Shown in pieces: positions 2,593 through 27,151 of a stretch of 64,000 bases of DNA. Made by a program: the position numbers and the translations under genes. Source of the DNA: Clostridia bacterium (GTDB lineage Bacteria > Bacillota > Clostridia > Oscillospirales > CAG-272); the NCBI GenBank assembly GCA_017472305.1, contig JAFUQP010000016.1, positions 5,960 to 69,959 of the forward strand, given 5' to 3'. Numbering within the stretch: position 1 is the first letter of the stretch; each line of letters starts with the position of its first letter. The notes below the pieces were generated by a model. The model was not told the DNA's origin and searched no databases. It saw only the letters and a program-made list of their open reading frames with translations.

Positions 2593-3537
2593 ATGTTTAT
2601 TTATATACTGTTTCTAGGATACACACTCTCAAAAACGTTATCCGATATAATGAGAAAGGCGAACAGCAAAACCTTCTCGTTAAGCGGTCTTACAGGCTCG
2701 CTCTTCTATATTTTCGAAACAAGTCTGTTCGCGCTTTTCTTCTTCTGGGCGCTCAACGGATTTACCCTTTCCTTCAATCCAAGGGTAATAATGTACGGTT
2801 TTGTTTACGGAATTATAGTAGTTGTGAGCCTTGTTCCGACGATATTTATGTATAACTACGCAAGCTTTGCATACATAACCTTCCTGTCGGGAAGCCTCTC
2901 GCTCGTCTTCTCGCTTCTTGCGGGAATGACGGTTTTCGGCGAGGAGCTGACGGTTGAGAAGGTCGTGAGAATTCTGCTTATGCTCGTAGCTACCCTCATA
3001 ATCTTTCTCGGAAGGAATGCCGAGGGCAAGAAGAAGGAAGGCGCCGACGGCGACCGTCCCGAGAAAAAGAGGCACAGCCCGAAGCTCTATATATGTATCT
3101 TCGTAAGCGTGCTTCTCGGCTGCGCCTCGACTGTCCTTCTGAAGTTTTACTCCCAAGACGCCGGGGTGACCGACCAGAATTCGATGTTCTTCGCGACCAA
3201 CATATTCAGCGCGCTTCTGACGTTGCCTATACTCCCCTTCACAATGAAGCGCGACGGAGTTAGCTTATCGGATATCGGAAAAATGCTCAAAAGCAAAAAA
3301 ACCGTCTATTCGGCAATCACAACCGCAAACTCAAACGTCGCATCCATAATACAGATAACGCTGCTCTCCATGATGGAGGTATCGGTATTCAATCCGATAG
3401 CCGGCGCGCTTTCTTTCGTAGCAATGGCAATAGCCGTTCCGATTATGGGCGAGCGGCTGAACAGGTATACAGTACTATCAACCGCTACAGCCATTTTGTC
3501 GGTTGTCATTCCCGCGTTAATCGCCTCTGTTATATAA
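2593..3537 (+). CDS. EamA/DMT-family membrane transporter
   Basis: About 10 hydrophobic helices in two repeats, with 'VFGEELT' and 'IMGERLN' DMT-type motifs. Confidence 0.75.
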   Translation: MFIYILFLGYTLSKTLSDIMRKANSKTFSLSGLTGSLFYIFETSLFALFFFWALNGFTLSFNPRVIMYGFVYGIIVVVSLVPTIFMYNYASFAYITFLSGSLSLVFSLLAGMTVFGEELTVEKVVRILLMLVATLIIFLGRNAEGKKKEGADGDRPEKKRHSPKLYICIFVSVLLGCASTVLLKFYSQDAGVTDQNSMFFATNIFSALLTLPILPFTMKRDGVSLSDIGKMLKSKKTVYSAITTANSNVASIIQITLLSMMEVSVFNPIAGALSFVAMAIAVPIMGERLNRYTVLSTATAILSVVIPALIASVI

Positions 3538-3572: not shown

Positions 3573-4397
3573 TCAAAGGGTTGTACCCGACGAGCTTATG
3601 TGCTTGATATGCGCCTTCGGTGTAACGCCCATCTGCGCCTTGAATACCGAGGAGAAATAATCCACGTTATTGAAGCCGCAAAGCGGCGCAAGGTTCTTCA
3701 AGGAGCGTATTCCCTGCTCCATAAGAAAGCAGGCGTGGCGGATACGGAGAATGTTTATATATTTGACAATGCTCAGACCGTATTCCTCGTTGAATACCGA
3801 GGAAATGTAATTCGGGTGATATGAGAGCTTGTCGGAAAGGTAGTTCAGTGTCAGCTCGCAGTTGGTGAAGTTGTCGTCAACGAAGCTCTTAATTCTCTGC
3901 GGTGCGCTTATTCCCTCTTTAAACGAGAAGTCCTCCGACATTCTCTTAAGAATTTCCGTGAAGGTGTAATAAATAACCCCCTTCGCTCTTGTAAAGGCAA
4001 GCGAGCCGGGAATGCTTATAAGCGACTCCCACAGTCCGCGAAGCTCGTCAAAGCCCGAATAAAGCTTTGCCACCCTGGCAATTCCCACCTGTCGGGCAAG
4101 AATTCTCGCCTCGGAGCCGTTATAGTTTATGCAGATATATCTCAGAGCGCGCGTGCTCTCAATGCTGTAAGCCGATGCAGGCGGAACGGCGATAATGTCA
4201 CCTCGCCTTACGGGCAGCTCCTCAGACGCCGCATAGACCATACCCTCGCCCTCGGTTATAAAATGAAGCCTGTAGCTTGGAGAGCTGTGCGCCGACTCGT
4301 CGCGGGAGCAGTCGCTTTCATACAAAATATTAGTCACACCGAGCGCATCCATACCGTTGCTGTAGGAAATCGCGGCGACGCCTGTATCACTGTGCAT
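3573..4397 (-). CDS. AraC-family transcriptional regulator (cupin + HTH)
   Basis: LHFITEGEG cupin; C-terminal YHPNYISSVF...YINILRIRHA...CGFNNVDYFSSVFKAQMGVTP. Start moved to 4397, which follows a GAAGGAGG RBS and lies downstream of the promoter. Confidence 0.9.
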   Translation of the reverse strand: MHSDTGVAAISYSNGMDALGVTNILYESDCSRDESAHSSPSYRLHFITEGEGMVYAASEELPVRRGDIIAVPPASAYSIESTRALRYICINYNGSEARILARQVGIARVAKLYSGFDELRGLWESLISIPGSLAFTRAKGVIYYTFTEILKRMSEDFSFKEGISAPQRIKSFVDDNFTNCELTLNYLSDKLSYHPNYISSVFNEEYGLSIVKYINILRIRHACFLMEQGIRSLKNLAPLCGFNNVDYFSSVFKAQMGVTPKAHIKHISSSGTTL

Positions 4398-4458
4398 AAT
4401 ACGCCCTCCTTCGGTGTAATTTTTCTCGGGAAAATCCTGTTTTTCCCTCTCATAAACC

Positions 4459-4487
4459 ATTATAGTTTGAATTGAAAGCATTGTCAA
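4459..4487 (-). promoter_or_regulatory. SigA promoter of the AraC gene
   Basis: Minus strand reads TTGACA-atgctttcaattcaaac (17 nt)-TATAAT. Confidence 0.75.
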
Positions 4488-4591
4488 TAGCAATCTTTAA
4501 AATTTACGGATTCGCGTTTGAATTTTTTTGAATTCCGAGTGCCGAAAAGACACCACCTTAAGATATTCCGTTTTTACATTTATTATTTCGG

Positions 4592-4620: not shown

Positions 4621-4796
4621 TATATTAGAATAGACAATTTCTAACTATTCTTACTGTTTTATCTTGGTAAATATAGATATAAATGTATATTTTTTTCGAT
4701 AAAACAGACGCGCACATTTCACCTTAAGATTTTTGGATAAATCGAGAAAAAACACATTTTCAAAAGTGCATGACCTGCACAGAAAGGAGATTTGCA

Positions 4797-4946
4797 ATGG
4801 CAACCGATAAAAATCGAAGGGACAGAGATATTTACGAGCCTGCAAGAATAAGCATATCGCTGATTGAATGCCCCGATATTATCACCGCCTCTCCCACCGC
4901 AAGCGACAACGTAAGCTCAAACGGTTGGACAAGCGGAGATTGGTAA
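4797..4946 (+). CDS. Unannotated 49-aa peptide with a leader-like YE...I...DIITAS motif and a C-terminal NGWT motif
   Basis: Strong RBS AGAAAGGAGA 6 nt before the ATG. Translation: MATDKNRRDRDIYEPARISISLIECPDIITASPTASDNVSSNGWTSGDW*. Too short to appear in the ORF track. Confidence 0.8.
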   Translation: MATDKNRRDRDIYEPARISISLIECPDIITASPTASDNVSSNGWTSGDW

Positions 4947-4996
4947 GGCCAAAAAAACACAAAAAACACTCTGAAAGCAAGAAAGGAAATCAAAAA

Positions 4997-6439
4997 ATGA
5001 AAAACAACAAGCTTATAAAAATCATATCTCTCGCGCTCTCGCTCGTGCTTATAGTAAGCTCGGCAACGGCACTTTTCACCTCAGCAGAGGCTGACACCGA
5101 GGTAACCCCCGAGGTCATTTCAAAGAACGCATCCTTCGATGACAACATTCATCTCTATTTCGCAGTAGCGGCAGAAGGTATAGAGAAGGAAAACATCTCA
5201 CTTAAGGTATACTCCGATGCAGAGGGCACAGTAGAGCTCCAGACCCCTCGCGCACCCGAGGCTGAAACCGAGAACGTTCACGGCACCGAGTGCTACATCT
5301 TCAGAACCCTCGGAATTGCTCCGAAGAACGCAGACAGCAAGATTTACGTTCAGGCTGTCAATACAGTCGGCGGCACCGAATACAAGGGTGATATCGTTGA
5401 GTACAGCGTTCTCGACTATCTCTACGAGATGCTCTATAAGGACGGCTTCATAGAGGCAAAGTCGGGCATCGCCCTCACCCAGAAGAACCTCTATCTCTCC
5501 ACTCTTGAATACTGTGCATACGCGCAGGACTTCTTTATTAATTATAAGGATAACGACTCGACAAACGACGTTCCCCTCTTCACAGACTACGCATACGTAG
5601 CAGTTAAGGACGGTACCGTTGACGGCAAGAAGCAGGCAACCTACTTAAAGAGCGCCTCCACTGAGGTTACCCTCGCTACCGATGCGGCAACCGCGGGTAT
5701 GATTTGGGAGGTTACCGAGTACGAGGAGAACGGACTCGCAAAGATATCCGAGGTCGAGCTCGACCCGTCGGGCGAAACCAAAATCAACATCACCACAGAC
5801 ACAGTGGTTAAGCTCGTATCCAATATAAAAGGCACTCTCCGCTTCAACACGGCAGACTCTCTGAACGACACCTCAAAAATTGCTATGAAGGCAGGCACAA
5901 CCTGGGAAAACGGCAGAATCAAGATAACAGCAGACGGCACAAGCACCGTTACGGAGCGATTCAGAGTTTATCCCACAGGCACGAACACCGGCAAGTCGGT
6001 TGCGGTATTCGAGGCAGACGTATCTATCGATTACTCCTCGGCTAACGCAAGCCAGCCTAACGGCAATATTTACCTCTCTCCTCTCTCAGTTACCACCTCC
6101 GGCAGCACCGCGGTTGGAGCCAAGATAATTCTCCAGCTGCAAAGCTCAAAAAAGCAGGCTAACGTATATCTTGGTGGCGTAACCAATTCGGGCTCTTCTC
6201 TGGTAGGCGAGCAGCTTGATTTCAAGCTTCGCTATACATACGAATACTCCTCGGAAAGCTCAAACGCTGTATGTACTCTTGAGATTCTCGACCTCGACGG
6301 TAATACGCTTCAGTCGGTAACCACCACCTCGACAAACAATATAAAGAGCCCCGACGATTGTCTTACCTTCGAGATGCTCGCTAACAGCAATCTTGCAGGT
6401 ACGCTGTATATCGACAACGTAGCCTTCTATCAGAGATAA
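4997..6439 (+). CDS. Secreted protein: signal peptide, conserved N-terminal domain (ISKNASFDDNIHLYFAV), C-terminal ConA/LamG-like beta-sandwich
   Basis: True start MKNNKLIKIISLALSLVLIVSSATALFTSAEA follows an AAAGGA RBS; the track's basic N-terminal extension overlaps the peptide gene. C-terminal AVFEADVSID...GTLYIDNVAF. Confidence 0.75.
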   Translation: MKNNKLIKIISLALSLVLIVSSATALFTSAEADTEVTPEVISKNASFDDNIHLYFAVAAEGIEKENISLKVYSDAEGTVELQTPRAPEAETENVHGTECYIFRTLGIAPKNADSKIYVQAVNTVGGTEYKGDIVEYSVLDYLYEMLYKDGFIEAKSGIALTQKNLYLSTLEYCAYAQDFFINYKDNDSTNDVPLFTDYAYVAVKDGTVDGKKQATYLKSASTEVTLATDAATAGMIWEVTEYEENGLAKISEVELDPSGETKINITTDTVVKLVSNIKGTLRFNTADSLNDTSKIAMKAGTTWENGRIKITADGTSTVTERFRVYPTGTNTGKSVAVFEADVSIDYSSANASQPNGNIYLSPLSVTTSGSTAVGAKIILQLQSSKKQANVYLGGVTNSGSSLVGEQLDFKLRYTYEYSSESSNAVCTLEILDLDGNTLQSVTTTSTNNIKSPDDCLTFEMLANSNLAGTLYIDNVAFYQR

Positions 6440-6566
6440 CCGTCTGAAAAGACACACCGCAAGCTCTGAATATTCAGGCTTTAAGGTTTTATTACCCGGC
6501 TTTACCCACAGGCAGAGCAACTACGGGCTTTGGCTCAAGGGTAAAGACGCGACCAACCAACCAACT

Positions 6567-6615
6567 TAGCGACCGCCCCGCGGCATTGCTGCGGGGCGTG
6601 GGTTGCTATACTTTT
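6567..6615 (+). terminator. GC-rich stem-loop (terminator or attenuator) between the secreted protein and the lipoprotein
   Basis: TAGCGACC-GCCCCGCGGCA...TGCTGCGGGGC-..GGTTGCTA followed by a short T-run. Confidence 0.5.
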
Positions 6616-6719
6616 GCGAAAACAGCTTCTCTTACACGGTCTGAAAAGAAGCGGCAGCTCCCCCGAGAGCGGCAAGCCCCTATATTACCGAGGCTCTGTT
6701 TTCGCCTAAAGGAGATTTT

Positions 6720-9700
6720 ATGAAAAAGCTTTTACTCACACTAATACTGCTCTTATCGCTCTGTCTTCTGTTCTCCTGCAAAATCGGAGGCTCAGACGAC
6801 GGCTCGGGCTCCGGCCAACAGTCGGGCGATTCCTCGGGCGGAAGCTCCTCCGGCGGCGACTCCGCAGACGGCTCCGCGGACAGTGCTGAAAAGGGGTCGG
6901 TATATCTTATAGCAGGAAACGGAGCTACCGCAGAGGCATTATCAGCGCTCTCGGCAGGGCTTACCTCGCTCGGCTACACGCCGACAACGCAAAGCGGCTC
7001 TGTCCCCGAGGGCAGCCTTACGGTTATACTCGGTGACCTTGACAGCGAAGAAGCCTCAAGGATTGCAAGGAGGCGACTCGAAAGAATTGAAAAAGAAGAG
7101 CATTTCGACGCGCGCTACTTGGTTTATTCGAACGGGGACGGACGCGTTGCAATATCCTTTGACACATACACCGAGCCCTCTGTTGCCGTCAGTGCCGCAG
7201 GCGGTGCTGCCGATGCCTTCCTCTCAAAGGCGACCGCCGCGTTTTCGGGCGCTGTCGGAACGCTTACCTCAGGCGAGATTGACCTCGTTGCCCTGCAAAA
7301 CGAAATAGACAACGCCTCGCTCGAGGAGCAATGGCAGACTGTGTTTGAGGAGGCGGGAGGCGATGAGAGAGCAAGAATTCTCACCGACTCGCTCCGCGAG
7401 TTCTACTCAATATACGGTGACAATCTTATAATCTGGCTTGCCGACCTGTACGACCCCGAGTCGGGCGGCTTCTACTACTCCAACTCCGCAAGAGATACCG
7501 ACGGCTACCTTCCCGATATCGAATCGACAGCCCAGGTGCTTGACAATCTGCGCGAGAACGGAATGTTTGATTACGTAGACAACAATTTAATGCGTGCTCT
7601 GCCCGAGTGGTTCAGAAGCGGCATAATTAAATTCATAAAGAGCAAACAAAGCCCCAACGGCTACTTCTACCACCCCCAGTGGTCAGAGGAGCTCACAAAC
7701 ACTATGCTCTCGAGAAGAGGACGCGACCTCACGAAGGGTGTTAGCGCCCTTAAGACTCTCGGAGCTAAACCGACCTACGACACGCCTCTTGGCGACAAGG
7801 GCGACGGACTCGATGCAAACGGAAACCCCATAGCCGATGCGCTCCCGGCATCTAAATCAATAACCGGCAGACTCGGCGCGGGAAAAGCCTCTGCCGCATC
7901 CAAGGTTATCGCGGTATCGGGCGTGCTGGTTCCCTCTCACCTCGTAAGCGACGTAACCTTCAAGGAATGGTTGTCAAAGCTCGACCTGAACGATGATTCC
8001 TATACTATAGGAAACAACATATCCTCACAGACTCCCGAGATAATAGGCAGAGATAAGGTTCTGAGGGCAGAAGGCAAGCCCTATCTTCTCTCGCAGATAC
8101 TGATAGATTGGCTTAACGAGCACTGCTACGCTACGACAGGGCACTGGAACAGCGTAGCCGACTATGAGGGCACGAACGGATTTCTGAAGATTTCGGGTTG
8201 CTATAACGAAATTGCAAAGTCCGGCCTCGGCGTAGATGCCTCTCTACCCTACCCCGAGAAGGCTCTCGAATCCTCTGTAGCGGCACTCATCACAGAGGAA
8301 TACGCTCTAACCGTATGCTATACCTATAACGTTTGGTACAACATATGCAACATATTCGATAACGTTACCTACTCAGACCCCGAGGCGGGCAAGGCGCTGG
8401 CAAAGGAAACCCGCGCAATGCTTCTCGATTACGTCACCGAGGACGTGCTATACAACGGGCTTATGCTCAACGCCATTACCATATCGAAGCTTAAGACGAT
8501 GGAGTTCTTGAAAAACGACTCGAGCTTCTCCTTCTCCCCGGGGCACTCAGCCGCAACCTCACAGGGAATGCAGGTTGCAGTACCCAACACCAACGAGGGC
8601 GATATCAACGGAACAAACCTCTGCTCAACCGGTATAGTTTCAAGAATGTTCGTAGCCCTCGGACTTCCTCACCCGCAGCTATTCACAAGAGCCGATGCTA
8701 TGTGCTTCCTTCGTAAGCTCGAGGAGCTGGGGCCGGTTATCAAAGACGAGGAAATCGTATACAACACGGGAAACCTCTCCTTTGACGATATGAACGTCGG
8801 CGACGAGCTTCAGCAGATTACCAACAACACCCCGGGAGAGAGCGAGCTTTCTGTTTCGCTCGACCCCGAGAACGCCCAAAATCTGGTTCTCCGCTACTCC
8901 AAGCGCACAAGTGCTGTCAACAAAGAGCGCGGTCAGATAGATTTCCAGACCACCGAGAGAAAGAATAATTACAACGCATTCGTTCTTTCGACCGATATGT
9001 ATATCGACTACCTCGACGGCGAGAACTTCCTCTCGTCCTATATGTACGGATATCTCGGAACGAAGGGCGAGCAGTTCGGCTACGAGTATATATTCTCGCC
9101 AAACAGACAGGCAGAGCTTCGCTTTGCCGACACCTCTCACGCATCGTACGGCAACAAATCCTCTACGTACGAGCTCGGTATTCCCGAGGAGAGCTGGTTC
9201 AACTTCAAAATAGAATACTATATCGGCGACGCTGATAGCGTAAGAATAAAAATTTATATTGACAACAAGCTATTCTACGTAAGCAATAATTTCTACGGTC
9301 CCAAAACGACCGATAAAATCGAAACGAATTACGAGCCGCTTTCTTCTCTGACGACGTTCCGTTTTTGCGTTGACAAGGCATTTCAGGGCGAAGTCTATTT
9401 TGACAATTTCAATCTCTATCAGGCAAATCTCATCTGTCAGGACCACCTCGTGGGAACGCAGGAGTCTATGCCCGACAGAGTGCCAGACTCGGCTCTTGAT
9501 TTTGAGAGCTTTGACGTAGGAGATAGCCCCGACACCGTTCACGTATCGTCAAAGCCCGGCACCGACTACTTCTCCGCCACGGTAACCGACAACCCGACAG
9601 GTAACGGCGGCAAGGTGCTGAAGAACTCAAAATACAACGAAAAGGCAGACGGAAGCGACCCCGTCAGCAGCTATGCCGGAACGCTGAAATTCGTTCCCCA

Positions 9701-10727
9701 TTACACAGACCCAAGCTTCAATGCGGCGGTATTCTCAAGCGATATGTATTTCGATTTCAACACCGCGTCAACGGTTATTCTGCGACTTGGAAATCACCTT
9801 AACACCGCTTGTATGCTGTTCGTTAACAGGCGAAGCGACGGCACCCTTTCCTTCAGAATTCTCTCAAACTCATCAAATCCGATAAACGAGTATTTCTATC
9901 CCGCAGCCCGCGAGAAGCACTGGTTTAACTTCAGACTTGAGTATTATCTCGGCGACTCCGAAAGCGTAAGGCTGAAGTTCTATATCAACGACGAGCTTGC
10001 CTACGTATCGGATAACTTCTACGGACCGATGTCCACAGACGGCGAGGACGCAACTCATACCCCTGAAAACAGGCTTACGAGATTTACGGTTTCAAGCTAC
10101 GGCGACTATGAGGGCGACGTTTACTTCGACAACGTTTCATTCGAGCTTGTTCAGAAGAGCTGCACAGCCGACGCGCTCGGTGCTTACGCGCACACTCACA
10201 CGAACGAGAACGGCGACGTCTTCTGCGATAAGTGCGGTGCGGTGCTTGAGCACGAATGCATAGACGAAAACCACGACGACGAGTGCGACAGGTGCAAAAG
10301 GAAGCTGCCTCACTCTCACTACGACGGTGACTCCGACGTATTCTGCGACAAGTGCGGCGAGGTTCTTCCGCACGACTGTGTTGATGACAATCACGATGAC
10401 AGGTGCGACAGGTGCGACAAGAAGCTGCCCCACACCCACTACGACGGTGACTCCGACGTATTCTGCGACGGCTGCAACGAGATTATGGAGCACGAATGCA
10501 CCGATACGGACGATAACCTTCTCTGTGACAGGTGCGGCGAGGCGGTAGAGCACTCCTGCCGCGATAACGACAGCGACGTAAAATGCGATATATGCGGCAA
10601 ATATATGCCTCATACTCACAAAGACCTTGATGCCGACGGAAAATGTGACGTTTGCGACATTCCCTTCGGTGACGGCGACTCCTTCGGTGACGAAAATCTC
10701 TCCGATAACGGCTGGACAAAAGAATAA
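6720..10727 (+). CDS. Large modular lipoprotein: Ser/Gly linker, putative alpha-helical toroid enzyme domain, two beta-sandwich repeats, eight His/Cys/Asp repeats, C-terminal NLSDNGWT
   Basis: Lipobox LLFS-C. The core is paralogous to 10770..12062. Internal duplication WFNFKIEYYIGDADSVRIKIYID / WFNFRLEYYLGDSESVRLKFYIN. Confidence 0.8.
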   Translation: MKKLLLTLILLLSLCLLFSCKIGGSDDGSGSGQQSGDSSGGSSSGGDSADGSADSAEKGSVYLIAGNGATAEALSALSAGLTSLGYTPTTQSGSVPEGSLTVILGDLDSEEASRIARRRLERIEKEEHFDARYLVYSNGDGRVAISFDTYTEPSVAVSAAGGAADAFLSKATAAFSGAVGTLTSGEIDLVALQNEIDNASLEEQWQTVFEEAGGDERARILTDSLREFYSIYGDNLIIWLADLYDPESGGFYYSNSARDTDGYLPDIESTAQVLDNLRENGMFDYVDNNLMRALPEWFRSGIIKFIKSKQSPNGYFYHPQWSEELTNTMLSRRGRDLTKGVSALKTLGAKPTYDTPLGDKGDGLDANGNPIADALPASKSITGRLGAGKASAASKVIAVSGVLVPSHLVSDVTFKEWLSKLDLNDDSYTIGNNISSQTPEIIGRDKVLRAEGKPYLLSQILIDWLNEHCYATTGHWNSVADYEGTNGFLKISGCYNEIAKSGLGVDASLPYPEKALESSVAALITEEYALTVCYTYNVWYNICNIFDNVTYSDPEAGKALAKETRAMLLDYVTEDVLYNGLMLNAITISKLKTMEFLKNDSSFSFSPGHSAATSQGMQVAVPNTNEGDINGTNLCSTGIVSRMFVALGLPHPQLFTRADAMCFLRKLEELGPVIKDEEIVYNTGNLSFDDMNVGDELQQITNNTPGESELSVSLDPENAQNLVLRYSKRTSAVNKERGQIDFQTTERKNNYNAFVLSTDMYIDYLDGENFLSSYMYGYLGTKGEQFGYEYIFSPNRQAELRFADTSHASYGNKSSTYELGIPEESWFNFKIEYYIGDADSVRIKIYIDNKLFYVSNNFYGPKTTDKIETNYEPLSSLTTFRFCVDKAFQGEVYFDNFNLYQANLICQDHLVGTQESMPDRVPDSALDFESFDVGDSPDTVHVSSKPGTDYFSATVTDNPTGNGGKVLKNSKYNEKADGSDPVSSYAGTLKFVPHYTDPSFNAAVFSSDMYFDFNTASTVILRLGNHLNTACMLFVNRRSDGTLSFRILSNSSNPINEYFYPAAREKHWFNFRLEYYLGDSESVRLKFYINDELAYVSDNFYGPMSTDGEDATHTPENRLTRFTVSSYGDYEGDVYFDNVSFELVQKSCTADALGAYAHTHTNENGDVFCDKCGAVLEHECIDENHDDECDRCKRKLPHSHYDGDSDVFCDKCGEVLPHDCVDDNHDDRCDRCDKKLPHTHYDGDSDVFCDGCNEIMEHECTDTDDNLLCDRCGEAVEHSCRDNDSDVKCDICGKYMPHTHKDLDADGKCDVCDIPFGDGDSFGDENLSDNGWTKE
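10191..10668 (+). repeat. Eight intragenic 60-bp (20-aa) repeats, approximate consensus H-x-[HC]-x-D-x-[DN]-x-D-x-x-C-D-x-C
   Basis: Examples: HSHYDGDSDVFCDKC, HDCVDDNHDDRCDRC, HTHYDGDSDVFCDGC, HTHKDLDADGKCDVC. Confidence 0.9.
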
Positions 10728-10769: not shown

Positions 10770-12062
10770 ATGAAAAATACATCTGTAAATATCGAGGCGG
10801 CTTGGAAAAGACTTGGCGACGAGGTAACTCGTCGCGGCGGCGACGGCGATGCATTCGTCGCCGCTATGAAGGACTATTATTCGATATACACCCCTGACCT
10901 TCTTCGTTGGGCGGGTGCGCTCTTCGACTACGAAATCGGCGGCTTCTACTTCTCAAACTCGTCGCGTGACGTGCGTGTTGCAGAATACAGAGGCAAGACC
11001 TATCACTTCCGTCCCGACGTGGAAAGCACAATGCAATGCATAAACTTCCTCTACGCCGTTAGAGCGGTTAACGCTCCCGAGGACTTCCCCGAATGGTTCA
11101 GAAACAAAGTGCGCGACTTCGTTTCTTCTCTTCAAGACCCCGAGGACGGCTTTATTTATCACCCGCAGTGGGAAAGAGAAAGCATAACCCCCTCAAGACT
11201 TGCAAGAGATATGCACTGGGCAATCGGGCTTGCAAAAAAGCTCGGCTTCTCTCTGCCCTATCCAACAGCACACGACAGAATCAAGGCCGCCGCCGAGAAA
11301 AAGACGGACGAAAAGGAAAGCCTTATTCCCGAGAACTTTCGCTCGCGCGAGGCATTCCTTGAGTATATTTCCTCTCTCAACTGGCAGGGCTCGGGCACTA
11401 CCGGCGCTTACGGCGCAGGCAACAGAATAGCGGCAGAGTCAAAGCTTATCGAGGCAGCGGGACTTACCGACGTGGCGGTGGAGTTCCTTAACTCGGTTCA
11501 AAACCCCGAGAACGGTCTGTGGGGAGATGCCGAGGGCTACGACGGAAATAACGCTTTTATGAAAATTTCAGCATTTTACGATGCCGTAAAGCGACCTATC
11601 CCCAACGCAACGAAGGCAATAAAGAACGCGCTATCCTGCCTTGTAACCGACGAATTCGCCCGCACGTCCTGCTATAACTTCAACGTGTGGTATTCAATCC
11701 TCAACGTTATCGCTAACTTAAGACGCTTCGGCGGCGAGGAGGGCGCGCGCGAGGCGTCGGCTATATCCGATATGCTTCTTCTTGACGCTCCGAAGTATCT
11801 TAAGGGAACGAAGGAAAAAATACTGACCTTCAGAAAGCCCGACGGCTCGTTCTCCTGTCTGACCACCTCAACGACACCCATAAGTCAGGGAATGCCGGTT
11901 GCCGTAGAAGGAACAAACGAAGGTGACTTCAACGCTCTGGCGCTAAACTCCAGCGGTACCTTTGTCAGAATATACGCCTGTCTCGGTCTTTCGGACTTCT
12001 TCGTACCTCCCTTCTCCGAAAATTCACTCGAGATATTCCTCTCTGCAATAAAAAAGAATTAA
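10770..12062 (+). CDS. Cytoplasmic stand-alone paralog of the lipoprotein core domain (uncharacterised, prenyltransferase/terpene-cyclase-like repeats)
   Basis: Shared motifs GGFY[YF]SNS.RD, PD[IV]EST, G.[FI]YHPQW, NVWY, SQGM.VAV..TNEGD. No signal peptide. Confidence 0.75.
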   Translation: MKNTSVNIEAAWKRLGDEVTRRGGDGDAFVAAMKDYYSIYTPDLLRWAGALFDYEIGGFYFSNSSRDVRVAEYRGKTYHFRPDVESTMQCINFLYAVRAVNAPEDFPEWFRNKVRDFVSSLQDPEDGFIYHPQWERESITPSRLARDMHWAIGLAKKLGFSLPYPTAHDRIKAAAEKKTDEKESLIPENFRSREAFLEYISSLNWQGSGTTGAYGAGNRIAAESKLIEAAGLTDVAVEFLNSVQNPENGLWGDAEGYDGNNAFMKISAFYDAVKRPIPNATKAIKNALSCLVTDEFARTSCYNFNVWYSILNVIANLRRFGGEEGAREASAISDMLLLDAPKYLKGTKEKILTFRKPDGSFSCLTTSTTPISQGMPVAVEGTNEGDFNALALNSSGTFVRIYACLGLSDFFVPPFSENSLEIFLSAIKKN

Positions 12063-12072
12063 GGAAGAGAAA

Positions 12073-14025
12073 ATGAGAAGAATATACAAAATAACCTCTG
12101 CAAGCCCTATAGATTTTGCTGCTGAGGAATTAAGAAAATATTTCAGAATGATGATGCCCCACGGCGGAAACTACCGAATTGAGTATAAGCCCGATGCAAA
12201 AGAGGGCTTCCGCCTCGGCTTGATGCAGGATTTCGGACTCGACGTCAGCGATGCCGAGGACACCGAGCTTGACGATATTCTTTATATCGACTGCACGGAA
12301 GAGGGCGGTATAATCGCAGGCGACAACCCTCGTTCGGTGCTTCTTGCGGTATACGAATACCTTCGCAGGCTCGGCTGCCGCTGGCTCTTCCCGGGTGTTG
12401 ACGGAGAGTATATTCCGACAAGAGAGCTGGAGCCGATAAGGCTTCGCCATAAGCCCTCTATGCGCTACAGAGGACAGTGCAACGAGGGTGCGGAGTTCCA
12501 GCAGTGTATGCTCGATGCCATCGACCTTGCGCCAAAGCTTGGAATGAACGTGTTTATGATGGAGTTCATGATTCCGAACTCATACTACGATATGTACTAT
12601 AACCATCTCAACAACACAGGCAACCGCTCACCCGAGCCGGTAACGCCCGAGCAGGTTCTGCAGTGGAAAAGGCAGTGCGAAGCGGAGATATCAAAGCGCG
12701 GTCTGCAGCTGCACGATATCGGTCACGGTTGGACCTGCCTGCCGTTCGGAATAAACTGCTCAAGCTCCATAATAACCGACGAAGAAATACCCGAAGAGGC
12801 AAGACAGTTCATTGCTATGAGACAGGGAAAGCGCGAGCTGTTTAACTCGCGTCCTCTGCACACGGAGTTCTGTATGTCAAACCCCGAGGCAAGGCGGCGC
12901 GTTGTAAATTATATTGCCGATTATGCCGATACAAACGACAACGTAGATTATCTGCACGTATGGCTTGCCGACGCAAGAAACAATCATTGCGAATGCGAGG
13001 AATGCTGCAAAAGGACTCCCTCGGATTGGTACGTTATTCTGCTCAACGAGCTTGACTGCGAGCTTACGCGCAGAAATAACAGCGCAAGAATAGTTTTTAT
13101 AGTCTATACCGACACCACGTTTGCACCCCTCACCGAGGCTCTTGATAATCAGAAGCGCTTTACGCTTATGCTCGCGCCCATAACAAGGAGCTTCACTCGC
13201 TCTCTCCCCACAGAGATTAAGAACGAGCCTATTCCCGTCTACGTAAGAAACGACATTACCCTGCCCTCAAAGGTCGAAGAATATTTCCTTCACCTGAAAT
13301 CATGGCAAAAAATGTGGCACGGCTCATCTATAGCATACGAGTACCACTTCTGGCGGCATCAGTACTACGACGTGCCCGGCATAAACCTCGCCAGAGTAGC
13401 TCACGAGGACGTCAAGGCATACGAAAAGAACGGAATACGCGGCATAATCGAGGACGGCTCACAGCGCTCCTTCTTCCCTAACGGCTTTGCCTTCTATGCT
13501 TATGCGAGAACGCTCTTTGATACCTCTCTGACCTTCGACGGTCTTATCGAGGACTATTTCAGCGTTGCATACGGCTCCTGCTGGCGTCAGATTTATGAGT
13601 ATCTTGAAAAGCTCGGCAAGGCGTTCAGCTTTGAGTTTATTGAGCAAGAGGCGTCAATTGATTACAGCGTATCGCGCTTCTACAATCCGCCTCACGCCGA
13701 TAACTTAAGGCGCGTTAAGGAAATCACCGAGGAGGGTATAAGGATAATCCGCAAAAACTACAATGCGCCTTACCGACTCGGCACCTTCGCTATGCGCCTT
13801 CTTGAAAAGCACGCGGAGTACAGCAATATGCTCGCCGACGCGCTGACCTACAAGGCAATAGGCGCAGACAAGTCGGCTTGGGAGAAATTCAATCATCTCG
13901 TCGATGCCTTTGGCAAATACGAGGCAGAGCTTCAGTCGGTCTATGACCACGGTCTTGCAATGAACTCTCTCAAAAACAACGTTTTCACCCTGAAAACAAA
14001 CCGTCCCGAGGCAGCGTATATGTAA
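12073..14025 (+). CDS. DUF4838-like putative glycoside hydrolase (GH20/GH67-like N-terminal domain plus TIM barrel)
   Basis: FAAEELRKY, IAGDNPRSVLLAVYEYLRRLGCRWLFPG, FCMSNPEARR, LADARNNHCECEEC. Confidence 0.7.
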   Translation: MRRIYKITSASPIDFAAEELRKYFRMMMPHGGNYRIEYKPDAKEGFRLGLMQDFGLDVSDAEDTELDDILYIDCTEEGGIIAGDNPRSVLLAVYEYLRRLGCRWLFPGVDGEYIPTRELEPIRLRHKPSMRYRGQCNEGAEFQQCMLDAIDLAPKLGMNVFMMEFMIPNSYYDMYYNHLNNTGNRSPEPVTPEQVLQWKRQCEAEISKRGLQLHDIGHGWTCLPFGINCSSSIITDEEIPEEARQFIAMRQGKRELFNSRPLHTEFCMSNPEARRRVVNYIADYADTNDNVDYLHVWLADARNNHCECEECCKRTPSDWYVILLNELDCELTRRNNSARIVFIVYTDTTFAPLTEALDNQKRFTLMLAPITRSFTRSLPTEIKNEPIPVYVRNDITLPSKVEEYFLHLKSWQKMWHGSSIAYEYHFWRHQYYDVPGINLARVAHEDVKAYEKNGIRGIIEDGSQRSFFPNGFAFYAYARTLFDTSLTFDGLIEDYFSVAYGSCWRQIYEYLEKLGKAFSFEFIEQEASIDYSVSRFYNPPHADNLRRVKEITEEGIRIIRKNYNAPYRLGTFAMRLLEKHAEYSNMLADALTYKAIGADKSAWEKFNHLVDAFGKYEAELQSVYDHGLAMNSLKNNVFTLKTNRPEAAYM

Positions 14026-14552: not shown

Positions 14553-17129
14553 ATGAATCCCGAAAAATTCACACAAAAATCACTTGAAGCAATAAGAGCG
14601 GCATCGGCTCTCGCCTCTGAGAAAGGCAATCCCACACTCGAGCCCTGCCATATCCTCTCGGCGCTGCTCTCGGCAGAGGGGGGACTCATTCCCGAGATAA
14701 TCACCAATATGGGGGCGGACGTAAAAAGACTGTCCGAGGGTGTCGGGGCGCTTGTCGCGTCGCTTCCCACAGGCTCGTCGGGCGAGCCTTACCTCTCACG
14801 CGAGGGCGAGGCAGCTCTCACCGCCGCAGACAGAGCGAGAGGCGATATGAAGGACGACTTCATATCTGTTGAGCATATTATGCTCGGACTCTTCGACAAG
14901 GGCGGCAAGGCTATAGAGAAGCTGCTGACGGATTGTTCCGTTAAGCGCGACGCCTTCCTCACGGCACTCAAAAAGTTGCGCGGCAACTCGCGCGTGACGA
15001 GCGAGAACCCCGAGTCAACCTACGACGTTCTGAAAAAATACGGTCAGGACCTTGTGGAGCTTGCAAGAAGCAAGAAGCTCGACCCTGTAATCGGCAGAGA
15101 TGACGAGATTAGAAACGTAATAAGAATTCTCTCTAGAAAAACCAAGAACAACCCCTGCCTTATCGGTGAGCCCGGTGTCGGAAAGACCGCTATCGCAGAG
15201 GGCCTCGCGCAGAGAATTGTACGCGGCGACGTGCCCGACAACCTTAAGGACAGGAGCATTTTCTCGCTTGATATGGGCGCGCTAATCGCAGGCGCAAAGT
15301 ACAGAGGCGAGTTTGAGGAGAGGCTGAAGGCGGTGCTCTCCGAGGTCAAGTCGAGCGAGGGCAGAATAATCCTCTTTATTGACGAGTTGCACACCATAGT
15401 CGGCGCAGGCAAGAGTGACGGCGCAATGGACGCAGGCAACCTTCTAAAGCCCATGCTTGCAAGAGGCGAGCTTCACTGTATCGGCGCGACCACCCTTAAC
15501 GAGTACCGCCAGTACATCGAAAAGGACGCGGCTCTTGAGAGGCGCTTCCAGCCCGTACTCGTTCCCGAGCCGACAGTCGAGGACACCGTCGCAATTCTCC
15601 GAGGGCTGAAGGAAAGATACGAGGTTTACCACGGTGTAAAAATCCACGACGCGGCGCTGATTTCGGCGGCTACTCTTTCCTCTCGCTACATCAGCGACAG
15701 ATTTCTGCCCGACAAGGCTATAGACCTTGTTGACGAGGCGTGCGCGCTTATCAAGACCGAAATGAACTCGATGCCGACCGAGATGGACGAGATATCGAGA
15801 AGGATAATGCAGCTTGAGATTGAAGAGGCGGCGCTGAAGAAGGAAACCGACAAGCTCTCAGCAGAGAGGCTCGCGGGAGTTCGCTCCGAGCTATCCTCGC
15901 TTCGCGACAGCTTCAACGAAATGAAGGCTCGCTACGAGAGGGAACGCTCGTCTATCGGCAAAGTGCAGAAATTACGCGAGGAAATCGAAGAAATCGGAAA
16001 AGAGATAGAAAAATCCGAGGCAGAATACAATCTTACCCGTGCCGCAGAGCTGAAATACGGCAGGCTTCCCGAGCTTCGCCGCGCCCTTGATGAGGCGGAG
16101 CGGAGCGACGGCGAGAAGTGCGAGAGAACGCTCCTGCGCGACGCTGTGACCGAGGAGGAAATATCGAGGATTGTTTCGCGCTGGACGGGAATTCCCGTCG
16201 CAAAGCTTATGGAGGGCGAGCGCGAGAAGCTGCTCGGAATGGAAGAAATCCTTCATAAGAGGGTTATCGGTCAGGACGAGGGTGTCACAAAGGTGGCAAA
16301 CGCAATTCTCCGCTCGCGTGCGGGAATCCGCGACCCGAAGAGGCCTATCGGCTCGTTTATGTTCCTCGGCCCGACGGGTGTCGGCAAGACCGAGCTTGCG
16401 AAGGCTCTCTCAGAGGCACTCTTTGACGACGAAAAGAACATCGTCAGAATAGATATGTCGGAGTATATGGAGAAGTTCTCGGTATCGAGGCTCATAGGAG
16501 CGCCTCCCGGCTACGTCGGCTATGACGAGGGCGGACATCTGACCGAGGCGGTGAGAAGGCGGCCGTACAGCGTCGTATTGTTCGACGAGATTGAAAAGGC
16601 GCACCCCGACGTATTCAACGTGCTTCTGCAGGTGCTCGACGACGGCAGAATAACCGACAGCCACGGCAGAACGGTTGATTTCAAGAACACCATTATCATT
16701 ATGACCTCAAACCTCGGCTCCGACGTTATTCTCGACGGCATCTCGGACGGCGAAATTTCCGAGTCGGCAAGAGAGAGAGTTACGGATATTCTCCGCCGCT
16801 CCTTCCGTCCCGAGTTCCTAAACAGACTTGACGAGATAATCTTCTTCAAGCCCTTGACGAAGGAAAACATCTCGAAAATCGTAGACCTTGCGCTTGCTTC
16901 GCTCTCGGCAAGGCTCTCGGAAAAGAGGCTGAAAATCGAGCTTACCGACAAAGCAAAGGAGCTTGTTATAGACTCGGCATACGACCCCGTATACGGCGCA
17001 AGACCCTTGAAGCGCTATTTAAGCTCTACTGTCGAAACGCTGGTTGCGCGTAAGATAATTGCCGAGAACCTCGAGCCCGACACAACCCTCACGCTCGACT
17101 GTGAGGACGGACGGCTCACCGTAAGGTAA
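14553..17129 (+). CDS. clpB: ATP-dependent chaperone ClpB
   Basis: Two AAA+ modules (GEPGVGKT, GPTGVGKT), LDPVIGRDDEIR, long coiled-coil middle domain, 858 aa. Confidence 0.97.
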   Translation: MNPEKFTQKSLEAIRAASALASEKGNPTLEPCHILSALLSAEGGLIPEIITNMGADVKRLSEGVGALVASLPTGSSGEPYLSREGEAALTAADRARGDMKDDFISVEHIMLGLFDKGGKAIEKLLTDCSVKRDAFLTALKKLRGNSRVTSENPESTYDVLKKYGQDLVELARSKKLDPVIGRDDEIRNVIRILSRKTKNNPCLIGEPGVGKTAIAEGLAQRIVRGDVPDNLKDRSIFSLDMGALIAGAKYRGEFEERLKAVLSEVKSSEGRIILFIDELHTIVGAGKSDGAMDAGNLLKPMLARGELHCIGATTLNEYRQYIEKDAALERRFQPVLVPEPTVEDTVAILRGLKERYEVYHGVKIHDAALISAATLSSRYISDRFLPDKAIDLVDEACALIKTEMNSMPTEMDEISRRIMQLEIEEAALKKETDKLSAERLAGVRSELSSLRDSFNEMKARYERERSSIGKVQKLREEIEEIGKEIEKSEAEYNLTRAAELKYGRLPELRRALDEAERSDGEKCERTLLRDAVTEEEISRIVSRWTGIPVAKLMEGEREKLLGMEEILHKRVIGQDEGVTKVANAILRSRAGIRDPKRPIGSFMFLGPTGVGKTELAKALSEALFDDEKNIVRIDMSEYMEKFSVSRLIGAPPGYVGYDEGGHLTEAVRRRPYSVVLFDEIEKAHPDVFNVLLQVLDDGRITDSHGRTVDFKNTIIIMTSNLGSDVILDGISDGEISESARERVTDILRRSFRPEFLNRLDEIIFFKPLTKENISKIVDLALASLSARLSEKRLKIELTDKAKELVIDSAYDPVYGARPLKRYLSSTVETLVARKIIAENLEPDTTLTLDCEDGRLTVR

Positions 17130-22251: not shown

Positions 22252-23508
22252 ATGAAGGCACTGTTCCGCAATGCTATGGTTTATGAAAACGGCAAAATCG
22301 AGCAGCGTGATATGTTCTTCGACGGTGCCTCTGTTTTCCCTTTCTCGGGTGATTTTTCCTCTTTTGACAATTCTGTTTCCGTTGTTGATAATACCGTTAT
22401 TATTCCCGGTTTCTGTGATGTTCACGTTCATCTCAGAGAGCCGGGTTTTTCTTATAAGGAAACGATTGCAAGCGGAACGGCGGCATCGGCACGCGGAGGA
22501 TATACCGCGGTTTGCTCTATGCCAAATCTTAAGCCCGCACCCGACAGCGTGGAAAATCTTGGGGTACAGCTCGAGATAATCGAAAGAGATGCGAAAATCA
22601 AGGTTATCCCCTACGGCACTATAACCGTTGGAGAGGGTGGCGAGCAGCTCTCGGATATGGAAGGGTTGGCTCAGTCGGTCGCAGGCTTCTCCGACGACGG
22701 CAGAGGCGTGCAGAGCGACGTGGTGATGCTCGAGGCAATGAAGAGAGCAAAGGCGCTCGGCAAGCCGATAGTCGCGCACTGCGAGGACAATTCCCTGCTC
22801 CGCGGCGGCTACATTCACGACGGAGAATACGCTAAGGCTCACGGCCACAGAGGTATATGCTCCGAGAGCGAATGGGGACAGATTAAGCGCGACCTTGAGC
22901 TTGTCAGACAGACGGGCTGCAAGTACCATATATGCCACGTTTCCACAAAGGAGAGCGTCGAGCTTATAAGACGGGCAAAGGCAGAGGGCCTTGACGTCAC
23001 CTGCGAAACAGGACCGCACTACCTTACCCTCGACGACTCGCACCTCACCGAGGACGCGAGATTTAAAATGAACCCGCCGCTTCGCTCCCCCGAGGACCGC
23101 GAGGCAATGCTACGCGGAGTTCTCGACGGCACGGTGGATATGATAGCAACCGACCACGCGCCCCACTCCGAAGAGGAGAAGTCGCGCGGACTTGAAAAGA
23201 GCGCGATGGGTGTTGTCGGAATAGAAACCGCCTTCGCGGTTATGTATACGCACTTCGTTCGCACAGGCACAATGACGCTTGAAAAGCTTGTTGAGATAAT
23301 GTCAACAAAGCCCCGCGAGCGCTTCGGAATAGACTCCGACCCGGGCTTCACGGTCTTTGAGGTCGGCACAGAGCACACCGTCAACCCCGACGACTTCCTA
23401 TCAAAGGGCAGAGCCACTCCCTTCGCAGGCGACAAAGTCTATGGCGAGTGCCTGCTTACGGTCTACGAGGGCAAGCCGGTTTACCTAAATCCGAAAATCG
23501 GAAATTAA
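22252..23508 (+). CDS. pyrC: Dihydroorotase
   Basis: PGFCDVHVHLREPG, MPN, KMNPPLR, IATDHAPH. Confidence 0.95.
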   Translation: MKALFRNAMVYENGKIEQRDMFFDGASVFPFSGDFSSFDNSVSVVDNTVIIPGFCDVHVHLREPGFSYKETIASGTAASARGGYTAVCSMPNLKPAPDSVENLGVQLEIIERDAKIKVIPYGTITVGEGGEQLSDMEGLAQSVAGFSDDGRGVQSDVVMLEAMKRAKALGKPIVAHCEDNSLLRGGYIHDGEYAKAHGHRGICSESEWGQIKRDLELVRQTGCKYHICHVSTKESVELIRRAKAEGLDVTCETGPHYLTLDDSHLTEDARFKMNPPLRSPEDREAMLRGVLDGTVDMIATDHAPHSEEEKSRGLEKSAMGVVGIETAFAVMYTHFVRTGTMTLEKLVEIMSTKPRERFGIDSDPGFTVFEVGTEHTVNPDDFLSKGRATPFAGDKVYGECLLTVYEGKPVYLNPKIGN

Positions 23509-23559
23509 GGTTAACAATCAAAAGCACAAAGCATCAACCAAGTATTAATCACAAAGCAC

Positions 23560-23935: not shown

Positions 23936-23952
23936 CCGAGGAGGATATAAAA

Positions 23953-27129: not shown

Positions 27130-27151
27130 CTACAGAAAGGAAAATGCGCGA

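Follow-up and report, generated by a model that had tools for sequence, protein, structure and literature searches.

Why would the product of a 49-codon ORF end with the same short Gly-Trp-Thr motif as the giant surface lipoprotein encoded two genes downstream? We addressed this question in a 64,000-nt stretch of the genome of a Clostridia bacterium (GCA_017472305.1, contig JAFUQP010000016.1, positions 5,960 to 69,959; referred to as the window). The preliminary description had reported the small ORF, its strong ribosome-binding site and the motif shared by the two C termini, and all of this proved correct upon reexamination. The features of the locus are collected in Table 1. The peptide ends DNVSSNGWTSGDW, and the secreted protein encoded between the two genes, called D hereafter, has an N-terminal signal-like helix.

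Table 1. Features of the locus, with positions in the window
Position	Strand	Feature	Basis
3573..4493	-	AraC-family regulator, divergent from the peptide gene	Pfam HTH_18 1.3e-14, HTH_AraC, AraC_binding; same position kept in orthologous loci L045 and L046
4783..4789	+	Shine-Dalgarno AAAGGAG, 7 nt before the ATG	Read directly; an AAGGAG- or AGGA-type site precedes the chosen start of 21 of 22 family members
4797..4946	+	49-aa precursor peptide gene (LPP-like); ATG at 4797, stop at 4944-4946	ORF; member of a 22-copy family; orthologues in L045 and L046
4797..4883	+	Inferred leader, residues 1-29: basic N terminus, Y13-E-P, beta-strand, D27-I-I	Y13 and D27 invariant in 21 aligned paralogues; cleavage point inferred only by analogy with LppA, which is cut two residues before the phosphorylated Ser
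4884..4943	+	Inferred core, residues 30-49 (TASPTASDNVSSNGWTSGDW); S32 is the candidate phosphorylation site	S32 invariant and W44 at least 90% conserved; analogy with S3 of LppA
4917..4943	+	Predicted docking tag, residues 41-49 (SNGWTSGDW)	Confident interface residues 41-47 and 49; G43, W44 and T45 invariant in 3 orthologues
4997..6439	+	Secreted 480-aa protein D, candidate tag receptor	No Pfam, NCBIfam or PDB sequence match; 15 orthologues; structure model; 20 of 21 D paralogues have a peptide gene upstream
5096..5491	+	N-terminal beta-sandwich plus helix of D (about residues 34-165), with the predicted Trp pocket (41-45 ISKNA, A56, 92, 94-95, Y141, E144, M145, K148-G150, Q162)	Predicted interface; residues 42-44, 56, 141, 144, 145, 148, 150 and 162 invariant in 15 orthologues; N44, A56, Y141 and Y147 conserved in paralogues
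5879..6433	+	C-terminal concanavalin-A/legume-lectin-like jelly roll of D (residues 295-479)	Model, pLDDT about 90; Foldseek matches to Emp46p CRD, legume lectins, alginate lyases and SGBP-B
6720..10727	+	1335-aa giant lipoprotein: lipobox (LLFSC, Cys20), G/S/D linker, alpha/alpha-toroid region, two LamG-like modules, Cys-rich stalk, tag	One of 23 paralogues of at least 600 aa
7317..8669	+	alpha/alpha-toroid region of the giant (residues 200-650), homologous to the 430-aa protein	phmmer domains 200-355 and 392-650
10182..10667	+	Eight 20-residue Cys-rich repeats (H-x-H-x-D-x-D-x-D-x-x-C-D-x-C), a stalk before the tag	Regular-expression listing; only chance-level PDB hits, to C1-domain chains (E 0.43 and weaker), over residues 1241-1286
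10692..10727	+	C-terminal tag of the giant (ENLSDNGWTKE plus stop)	Orthologue ends TENMTPDGWS
10770..12062	+	430-aa signal-less alpha/alpha-toroid paralogue	Model pLDDT 94.8, pTM 0.91; weak fold matches (TM 0.3-0.5) to type II terpene cyclases, prenyltransferase beta subunits and GH15/88/76; 126 unnamed homologues
12073..14025	+	DUF4838 protein, syntenic in the orthologous locus	Pfam PF16126 8.2e-14; synteny in L045

We first asked whether the resemblance of the two tails could be fortuitous, as the shared motif is only 6 to 9 residues long. Enrichment of the motif at C termini and its retention in homologous lipoproteins had been named beforehand as conditions on which the proposal would stand or fall. 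In a six-frame scan of the whole genome, [DE]N[VLI]xx[NDG]GWT occurs twice, both times at this locus, and NGWT occurs five times, four of them within 5 residues of a stop codon. In the syntenic orthologous locus L045, whose secreted protein is 51% identical to D, the peptide ends EVNLESDGWT and the giant also keeps the motif, while the peptide of a second orthologous locus, L046, ends GDNLESDGWT. The orthologues preserve N38, S41, G43, W44 and T45. We next compared peptide and giant tails across 13 loci. The scores of cognate pairs sum to 564, against about 319 expected, and none of 200,000 permutations reached this value; the cognate giant is the best match for 9 of 13 peptides, and in 9 of 13 loci the peptide core is closer to the tail of its own giant than to any other peptide core. 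The same mimicry was found in another species (genome G003), with GEGNDSEEGGWTNQKDW against GDGKDTDDGGWTNSNVW. The permutation test and the orthologues rule out a chance resemblance.

A small ORF located 50 nt upstream of D and next to an AraC regulator might also be a translated leader that only regulates expression of the downstream gene, with a product devoid of function. This appears very unlikely, because conservation is at the protein level. The gene is one of 22 paralogues in this 2.03-Mb genome, the Y, D, S and W columns are kept across 21 aligned paralogues of 20 to 35% identity, and the leader motif resembles that of RiPP precursors. In the related genome G009, the family member sits in a K-B-S-D-N cluster in front of an unrelated protein. 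Evidence of expression had also been singled out in advance as a test; RNA runs gave no cover of the peptide gene. The family extends beyond this organism, with hits in 18 of 40 related genomes, in agreement with the preliminary description, which had proposed a leader-type peptide of a clostridial family. That description had also remarked that the Pro spacing of the leader is one residue shorter than usual, which is true of the window peptide (YEP), whereas its two orthologues have the canonical YENP and YEHP.

The leader, with its Y..P motif, beta-strand and D-I-I-T-A-S sequence, resembles those of the precursors of linear polyphosphorylated peptides (LPP; Popov et al. 2026, PMC13381572). 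The published LPP leader is YxxPxVLxHQxIxFETxxS, cut after T-1, with S3 polyphosphorylated. The consensus of the family studied here is Y-x-x-[AP]-x-L-x-x-x-x-F-x-x-x-D-I-I-x-T-S, in which Y, D and S are invariant, but the Y-to-S distance is 19 residues rather than 18 and both HQ and FET are absent, so that the comparison of the leaders does not settle membership either way. Phosphorylation of the core Ser and cleavage two residues before it were not assayed.

Since no maturation enzyme is encoded at the locus, we searched the rest of the genome for the corresponding machinery, a search that had been proposed at the outset. A single kinase-RRE-peptidase-nucleotidyltransferase cluster (K-B-S-N) was found in trans, on another contig (C1:94909-97550). 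Two of its components score above the curated cut-offs, namely a discrete PqqD-like RRE, an 85-aa ORF at C1:96554-96808 (PF05402, 3.3e-14, 53.4 bits against a cut-off of 23.4), and an NTP_transf_5 nucleotidyltransferase (PF14907, 2e-41), the only copy in the genome. The assignments of the other two are less secure. The 252-aa ORF directly upstream of the RRE has a P-loop (SGTGKST) and matches the ScmC profile of HprK-like kinases (TIGR04249) at 1.4e-5, but its 24.6 bits are far below the cut-off of 125, which leaves its identity undecided. Similarly, the 153-aa ORF after the RRE matches archaeal-type (SipW-like) signal peptidase I (TIGR02228) at 1e-4, with 22.2 bits against a cut-off of 51.85. 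Its Ser25, His64 and Asp79 motifs are present and its Ser-to-His spacing of 39 equals that of S29/H68 in LppS, but LppS itself was not aligned, and these observations do not decide whether it is the leader peptidase. The kinase is conserved in 27 of the 40 relatives, i.e., in all 18 that have the peptide and in 9 of the 22 that lack it. None of the 22 precursor genes lies next to the cluster in this genome, which is 86% complete, and no MsbA-like exporter is found beside K-B-S-N, the best genome match to the ABC exporter of G009 being 28% identical. Export of the peptide in this organism is thus assumed. In contrast, in G009 the peptide, surface protein and K-B-S-ABC-N genes are all contiguous in that order, and in the related genome G038 the peptide gene lies about 1.6 kb from B and K.

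A D gene starts 23 to 97 nt after 19 of the 22 peptide genes and 1470 nt after one more. We ran complex predictions of the peptide with D, another of the tests set out beforehand. The three runs scored 0.70, 0.74 and 0.74, against 0.00 for the best of 3 controls. That mark was reached by 58 of 80 solved complexes and 2 of 110 mismatched pairs, and the runs agree in at least 47% of contacts. The predicted interface places peptide residues 41 to 47 and 49 (SNGWTSG and W) against D residues 41-45, 56, 92, 94-95, 141, 144-145, 148-150, 162 and 204, i.e., the SNGWT stretch faces the ISKNA, A56 (of LYFAV) and YLYEMLYK motifs. There is no solved relative that the model could recall. This supports binding but does not show it. 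Nothing has been measured, the evidence is one model-based prediction made with our own small alignments, the fold confidence of the partner is low (pLDDT 42-44), and the peptide alone, not the tail of the giant, was modelled against D. In addition, an acidic residue at position 144 of D accompanies W-T or W-S in 8 of 8 pairs, against 4 of 12 other pairs (Fisher p=0.005), although this count is confounded by the relatedness of the paralogues, which are not independent. The tag is also portable. Besides the giants, it ends a mini-lipoprotein of ~73 aa made only of lipobox, linker and tag (the 80-aa ORF C18:4799-5041 on a further contig, counted from its MKKLLL start), and a 276-aa repeat lipoprotein on contig C31.

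These data bear on two other readings. In the first, the peptide is an LPP-like RiPP with a function of its own, such as a signal, an antimicrobial or a matrix component, D does not bind it, and its resemblance to the lipoprotein tails reflects shared ancestry or intra-locus recombination rather than a shared receptor. The LPP link is compatible with this view, the function of LPPs is unknown according to the discussion of Popov et al., and both tails and cores are low-complexity acidic/Gly-rich sequences that align easily (off-diagonal mean score, 24.6). Nevertheless, we consider it unlikely, because the match is locus specific, the tag is conserved in orthologues of both genes, peptide and D genes are paired in 20 of 22 cases, and the complex prediction supports binding. 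Codon identity at identical residues is no higher in cognate pairs (53 of 101) than in noncognate pairs (329 of 721; p=0.20), giving no sign of recent gene conversion. In the second reading, the GW[TS] tail is a substrate signal for a processing, ligation or sorting enzyme shared by a free peptide and by lipoproteins, as might be suggested by the C-terminal position of the tag in the four NGWT cases, its portability between unrelated lipoproteins, and the presence of a nucleotidyltransferase of unknown substrate. This appears more doubtful still, since no candidate enzyme is encoded in any of the cassettes and the predicted pocket of D fits the tag. Moreover, the peptide lacks a signal peptide whereas the lipoproteins are exported by Sec, so one enzyme would have to meet both.

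We thus favor, with a probability of roughly 0.55, a tag and receptor docking system built on an LPP-like peptide. By analogy with LPPs, we infer that the leader is bound by the single PqqD-type recognition protein of the genome, that Ser32 is phosphorylated by the adjacent HprK/ScmC-like kinase, and that the leader is removed by the archaeal-type signal peptidase, all of them encoded on contig C1. The next step rests on the model rather than on analogy: the last residues of the roughly 20-residue acidic core (S-N-G-W-T) would form a docking tag that fits, Trp first, into the conserved pocket of the N-terminal domain of D. Tethering is again an inference, in which the giant and the two other lipoproteins that end with the tag would hold the otherwise anchorless secreted protein at the cell surface. 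No step has been shown experimentally, and the role of the cytoplasmic toroid protein is unexplained in this scheme. Ten of 23 giants lack the tag, yet 20 of 21 receptor genes have their own peptide gene. We therefore take the peptide to be the primary ligand, either an envelope-linked adaptor via its modified Ser or a soluble competitor, and the lipoprotein tails to be secondary copies, which is likewise inferred. The interpretation of the preliminary description, that NGWT is a recognition tag and that any maturation machinery acts in trans, is therefore supported in silico, and of its two alternatives a docking ligand is favored over a shared processing substrate.

A bolder extension, which we regard as tentative, is that LPP-type modified peptides are not antibiotics or signals but docking adaptors. 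Each of the 22 peptides would be the private ligand of one secreted lectin-like protein, and lipoproteins would have copied the core of the peptide onto their C termini to capture that protein. This would make a RiPP-based, paralogue-specific system for assembling a cell-surface glycan-harvesting apparatus that takes up about 8% of the genome, an undescribed way for gut bacteria to assemble proteins on their surface. It would give the first function for the LPP class, as well as a natural tag of about 6 to 10 residues with a receptor domain of roughly 130 to 170 residues.

The peptide class is not wholly new, as LPPs were described in 2026; the candidate receptor, the in-trans cluster and the statistics are new. 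The closest system is lppA-K-B-S-D-N of Paenibacillus alginolyticus (PMC13381572), which similarly has a small precursor with a Y..P leader, a beta-strand and a conserved Ser shortly after the cleavage region, and whose precursors have highly variable C termini. It differs in that here 22 precursors are scattered over the genome, with one enzyme cluster in trans and no exporter beside it, the leader consensus is D-[IV]-[IV]-x-[TA]-S instead of F-E-T-x-x-S and one residue longer, and each precursor is paired with a secreted lectin-like protein and has its core mimicked by lipoprotein C termini. Paeninodin-type lasso peptide clusters share the [Y/W]xxP leader, PqqD RRE, HprK-like kinase and nucleotidyltransferase, but no B2 transglutaminase-type protease (PF13471) was found at E<=0.01 in the genome, which is 86% complete; the macrolactam synthetase was not searched for. 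The proposed docking would work like the cohesin-dockerin assembly of cellulosomes, in which a module at the end of one protein docks into a beta-sandwich receptor to assemble glycan-related proteins on the cell surface, with paralogue-specific pairs. However, no dockerin, with its duplicated Ca-binding loop-helix, no cohesin and no other Pfam family was detected at E<=0.01 in the peptide, D or the giant, and the comparison was not tested beyond Pfam. The ligand, which also exists as a free, probably modified peptide, is a tag of about 6 to 10 residues rather than a ~70-residue Ca-binding module. Finally, although the cassette has no transporter and no recognizable CAZyme family, and a peptide/tag layer is not part of any described polysaccharide utilization locus, the locus shares with those of Gram-positive bacteria and with surface glycan-binding proteins an AraC regulator, a surface lipoprotein with LamG/ConA-like modules, a secreted ConA-like protein with fold matches to SGBP-B and CBMs, and neighboring pectate-lyase-like and DUF4838 genes.

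We first re-examined the small open reading frame and its neighbors. The sequence is as the preliminary description had reported: an ATG preceded by AAAGGAG opens a 49-codon frame ending DNVSSNGWTSGDW, and the 1335-aa protein encoded further downstream has a lipobox (LLFSC, Cys20) and ends ENLSDNGWTKE. Between them lies a gene for a 480-aa protein, here called D, which has an N-terminal signal-like helix and matched no Pfam, NCBIfam, or PDB sequence. We searched the six-frame translation of the whole 2.03-Mb assembly (42 contigs, 86% complete). The pattern [DE]N[VLI]xx[NDG]GWT occurs twice, both times at this locus, and NGWT occurs five times, four of them within five residues of a stop codon, showing that the motif is more than chance.

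Coordinates of the features (numbered along the window unless a contig or locus is given)
Feature	Location	Strand
Ribosome-binding site AAAGGAG	4783-4789	
Peptide gene, 49 codons, start at 4797	4797-4946	
Stop codon of the peptide gene	4944-4946	
Gene for the secreted 480-aa protein D	4997-6439	
Gene for the 1335-aa giant lipoprotein	6720-10727	
Eight tandem 20-residue repeats of the giant	10182-10667	
Metatranscriptome contigs on the D gene	5195-5379 and 6122-6335	
Pectate-lyase-like beta-helix protein	496-2568	
EamA-type transporter	2593-3537	
DUF4838 protein	12073-14025	
ClpB, DegV, an ABC/FtsX transporter, and a pyrimidine biosynthesis operon	14553-17129, 22252-31602	
Kinase-like, PqqD, peptidase-like, and NTP_transf_5 gene cluster	contig C1 of this genome, 94909-97550	minus
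80-aa ORF containing the mini-lipoprotein (outside the window)	contig C18 of this genome, 4799-5041	+
276-aa repeat lipoprotein (outside the window)	contig C31 of this genome, 20446-21276	-
Cassette with two D-type genes	contig C4 of this genome, 28508-37757	
Family peptide with a Cys-rich core, 451-aa ORF, PqqD and kinase genes	locus L030 (relative G038, contig C52), 7384-9181	

The peptide belongs to a large family. A profile built from motif-bearing small ORFs found 22 members in this genome, of which 21 have an AAGGAG- or AGGA-type site before a start codon. In the 21 aligned members, Y13, D27, and S32 (numbering of the window peptide) are invariant and W44 is at least 90% conserved, although overall identity to the window peptide is only 20 to 35%. 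The profile hit 18 of 40 related genomes, i.e., 16 of 24 in the same genus and 2 of 16 from other families of the order. A word-based homology search with the peptide found only the peptide itself, and scans of the genome and metagenome collections each returned one related locus. Pfam and NCBIfam searches gave nothing for the peptide, the giant, or the 430-aa protein of the locus, and PDB sequence searches gave only chance-level hits. Two metatranscriptome runs held only one short contig each, on the D gene, and nothing on the peptide gene, which is no evidence either way on its expression.

Each peptide sits in a recurring module, which consists of a giant lipoprotein, a signal-less protein of about 410 to 440 aa homologous to the central region of the giant, the peptide gene, and a secreted D protein of 470 to 790 aa. 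The giants number 23 paralogs of 671 to 2425 aa, at least 19 of them with a lipobox recognized by a regular expression. Together, the 64 protein genes of these families cover about 172 kb, or 8.4% of the assembly, and all members found in the database searches are unnamed or "hypothetical." The signal-less 430-aa protein of the locus was modeled as an alpha/alpha toroid (pLDDT 94.8). It resembles terpene cyclases, prenyltransferase beta subunits, and several glycoside hydrolase families only weakly, with TM-scores of only 0.3 to 0.5. No family can be assigned, and the role of this cytoplasmic paralog is unexplained. The model of D comprises a signal helix, a beta domain (residues 40 to 137), helices (138 to 179), a second beta domain, and a confident concanavalin-A/legume-lectin-like jelly roll (295 to 479), with fold matches to lectins, carbohydrate-binding modules, and surface glycan-binding proteins. 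A search of the ESM Atlas with the N-terminal domain of D returned only unnamed Bacillota clusters. In the giant of this locus, eight tandem repeats (H-x-H-x-D-x-D-x-D-x-x-C-D-x-C) form a Cys/His/Asp-rich, possibly metal-binding stalk just before the tag.

We next asked whether the resemblance between the tails is systematic. Thirteen of the 23 giants end in an acidic/Gly-rich tail with a Trp near the C terminus (Tyr in one), whereas ten stop right after the last LamG-like module. For the 13 tailed loci, we scored each peptide core against the last 30 residues of every tailed giant. Cognate pairs sum to 564, against about 319 expected, and none of 200,000 permutations reached that value. The cognate giant is the top hit for 9 of 13 peptides, and the cognate peptide is the top hit for 10 of 13 giants. 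For the window, the cognate score is 41, and one noncognate giant with a similar GWTGS tail scores 43. In 9 of 13 loci, the core is closer to the tail of its own giant than to any other peptide core. Cores and tails therefore evolve together within a locus. Gene conversion was considered as the cause of this matching and rejected, because at identical residues (excluding W and M) codons are identical in 53 of 101 cognate positions and 329 of 721 noncognate positions (P = 0.20), arguing against recent DNA copying.

The same mimicry appears elsewhere. In another species (G003), the giant ends GEGNDSEEGGWTNQKDW and the peptide ends GDGKDTDDGGWTNSNVW. In the orthologous locus of an uncultured Eubacteriales genome (L045), in which D is 51% identical and the gene order is AraC, peptide, D, giant, toroid, DUF4838, the peptide ends EVNLESDGWT and the giant ends TENMTPDGWS; the orthologous giant also has the same Cys/His/Asp-rich repeats. 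The pectate-lyase-like protein, the EamA-type transporter, and the DUF4838 protein that flank the cassette are syntenic in L045 as well, suggesting a glycan-degradation setting, whereas the rest of the window is ordinary housekeeping. In other relatives (loci L031, L038, L043, L044, and L040 of G009, G002, G022, and G020), family peptides lie directly beside, upstream or downstream of, large secreted proteins of other families. Several of these proteins end in a conserved helix of the type ..NAMYDYNAAANAY, and no tail mimicry is evident there. Why relatives place family peptides beside quite different giant surface proteins is unexplained.

The most constant neighbor of the peptide is D. A D gene begins 23 to 97 nt downstream of 19 peptide genes and 1470 nt downstream of one more, and the two peptides on contig C18 have no D gene. 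Conversely, 20 of 21 D genes have a peptide gene upstream. The exception is the first of the two D-type genes of the C4 cassette, in which only the second is preceded by a peptide gene.

We predicted the complex of D (residues 34 to 480, with an alignment of 15 orthologs) with the peptide (with an alignment of 3 orthologs), absence of predicted binding having been set out beforehand as evidence against a recognition role. Scores were 0.70, 0.74, and 0.74, against 0.00 for the best of 3 controls, a mark reached by 58 of 80 solved complexes and 2 of 110 mismatched pairs. The runs agree in at least 47% of contacts, and the pLDDT of the partner is at least 42. The model supports binding but does not show it, and as we used our own alignments the calibration holds only roughly. 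The confident interface comprises peptide residues 41 to 47 and 49 (S-N-G-W-T-S-G, W), facing D residues 41 to 45 (ISKNA), 56, 92, 94-95, 141, 144-145, 148 to 150 (within YLYEMLYKDG), 162, and 204, with the lowest expected errors for W44 and T45. These D motifs are the ones that the preliminary description had flagged. Residues 42 to 44, 56, 141, 144, 145, 148, 150, and 162 are invariant among the 15 orthologs. N44 (16), A56 (20), Y/F141 (21), and Y147 (16) are kept in the 21 paralogs of a 22-row alignment, which also held one unrelated row, UvrA. No solved relative exists that the model could recall.

There is also a hint of covariation. In all 8 peptide-D pairs in which Trp is followed by Thr or Ser, D has Glu or Asp at position 144, which holds in 4 of the 12 other pairs (Fisher P = 0.005), a figure inflated by the relatedness of the paralogs. 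More generally, the residue after the Trp tracks D pocket residues: W-T/S goes with [IVL]S[KQ]N and E/D144, W-D with xA[KQ][ST]I.H and FL.[AT]KLY, and W-V with Y[IL]YERQF. This may be a specificity code.

The tag is portable and sits on lipid-anchored proteins. Of 4732 ORFs of at least 80 aa, 35 match a loose W-tail pattern, and in 14 of these the last 30 residues are at least 60% D/E/G/S/T/N/P. Of those 14, 11 are giants of this family, one is an unrelated 689-aa ORF (contig C21), and two are other lipoproteins. The first, on C31, is a 276-aa protein with three GWYYD-type repeats (G[YH]xFxGWY[YF]D) that ends in DDNGWTGIRK (GGGGNSDDNGWTGIRK), showing that the tag also occurs on a protein unrelated to the giants. 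The second, on C18, is a ~73-aa protein made only of a signal peptide, a lipobox (LASCEDG), a G/S/D linker, and a tail with DPNGWTKPNYK, ending DGYDPNGWTKPNYK. It looks like a minimal lipid-anchored copy of the tag, and a lipid anchor carrying nothing but the tag is what a docking site would look like.

The interpretation in the preliminary description, that the motif is a recognition tag, possibly a docking ligand, is supported by the model. The gene, its family, the cassette, an enzyme cluster encoded in trans, and the locus-specific mimicry are shown by sequence, whereas binding of the tag to the N-terminal domain of D is supported by the complex prediction. We infer the maturation steps, by analogy with LPP, and likewise export, the role of the peptide relative to the lipoprotein tails, and the use of the same pocket by the tail of the giant, in which G, W, and T are identical but which was not modeled. 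As ten giants lack tails while nearly every D has its own peptide, we take the peptide to be the primary ligand and the lipoprotein tails to be secondary copies that tether D to the cell. The free peptide may be either an envelope-linked adaptor or a soluble competitor, a choice that our data leave undecided. The cassette family probably shapes how uncultured gut Clostridia display carbohydrate-binding proteins, and if the short tag and its receptor bind with paralog specificity, they would form a set of orthogonal peptide-protein pairs of practical use.

Because the locus itself had been noted to lack maturation enzymes, a PqqD/peptidase/nucleotidyltransferase cluster had been proposed as something to look for elsewhere, and the genome contains one cluster resembling it, on contig C1. 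It encodes a 252-aa P-loop protein (best family hit ScmC, 1.4e-5, below the curated cutoff), an 85-aa PqqD protein (PF05402, 3.3e-14, above the cutoff), a 153-aa peptidase-like protein (archaeal signal peptidase I, 1e-4, below the cutoff), and a 394-aa NTP_transf_5 protein (PF14907, 2e-41, above the cutoff). The peptidase-like protein has Ser25 and His64 spaced as in LppS. No exporter lies beside the cluster, and no close ortholog of the ABC exporter of the relative G009 was found elsewhere in the assembly, leaving the missing exporter unexplained. A search for a lasso B2 protease in the assembly found none. Among the 40 related genomes, the kinase is present in all 18 with a peptide profile hit and in 9 of the 22 without one, the other 13 lacking both; as kin are not independent, this is descriptive. 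Physical linkage exists in relatives. In G009, the order is peptide, a 1467-aa surface protein, then kinase, RRE, peptidase, ABC exporter, and nucleotidyltransferase. In G038, the peptide lies about 1.6 kb from the RRE and kinase. There, a family peptide with a Cys-rich core (..GGMTVIPCDTCSDDEFTCIID) precedes a 451-aa ORF, then the PqqD and kinase genes, which may represent a different modification route on the same leader.

The closest comparison is with the LPP class described in 2026 (Popov et al. 2026, PMC13381572). Full-text literature searches found no relevant description of a peptide/surface-protein docking system of this kind, although they did not extend to the supplements of that paper, which may list clostridial precursors of this subfamily. 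LPP precursors are reported to carry YxxPxVLxHQxIxFETxxS, to be bound by a discrete PqqD RRE, and to be phosphorylated several times on Ser3 of the core by an HprK-like kinase, and their function is unknown. We conclude that the peptide is an LPP-like precursor, although membership in the strict sense is incomplete. This locus offers a concrete, testable hypothesis for the class, namely, that the variable core is a docking tag for a neighboring secreted protein. The family here has the same layout as the LPP precursors, with Y, P or A, a beta-strand, and a conserved Ser, the Ser being one residue further from Y.
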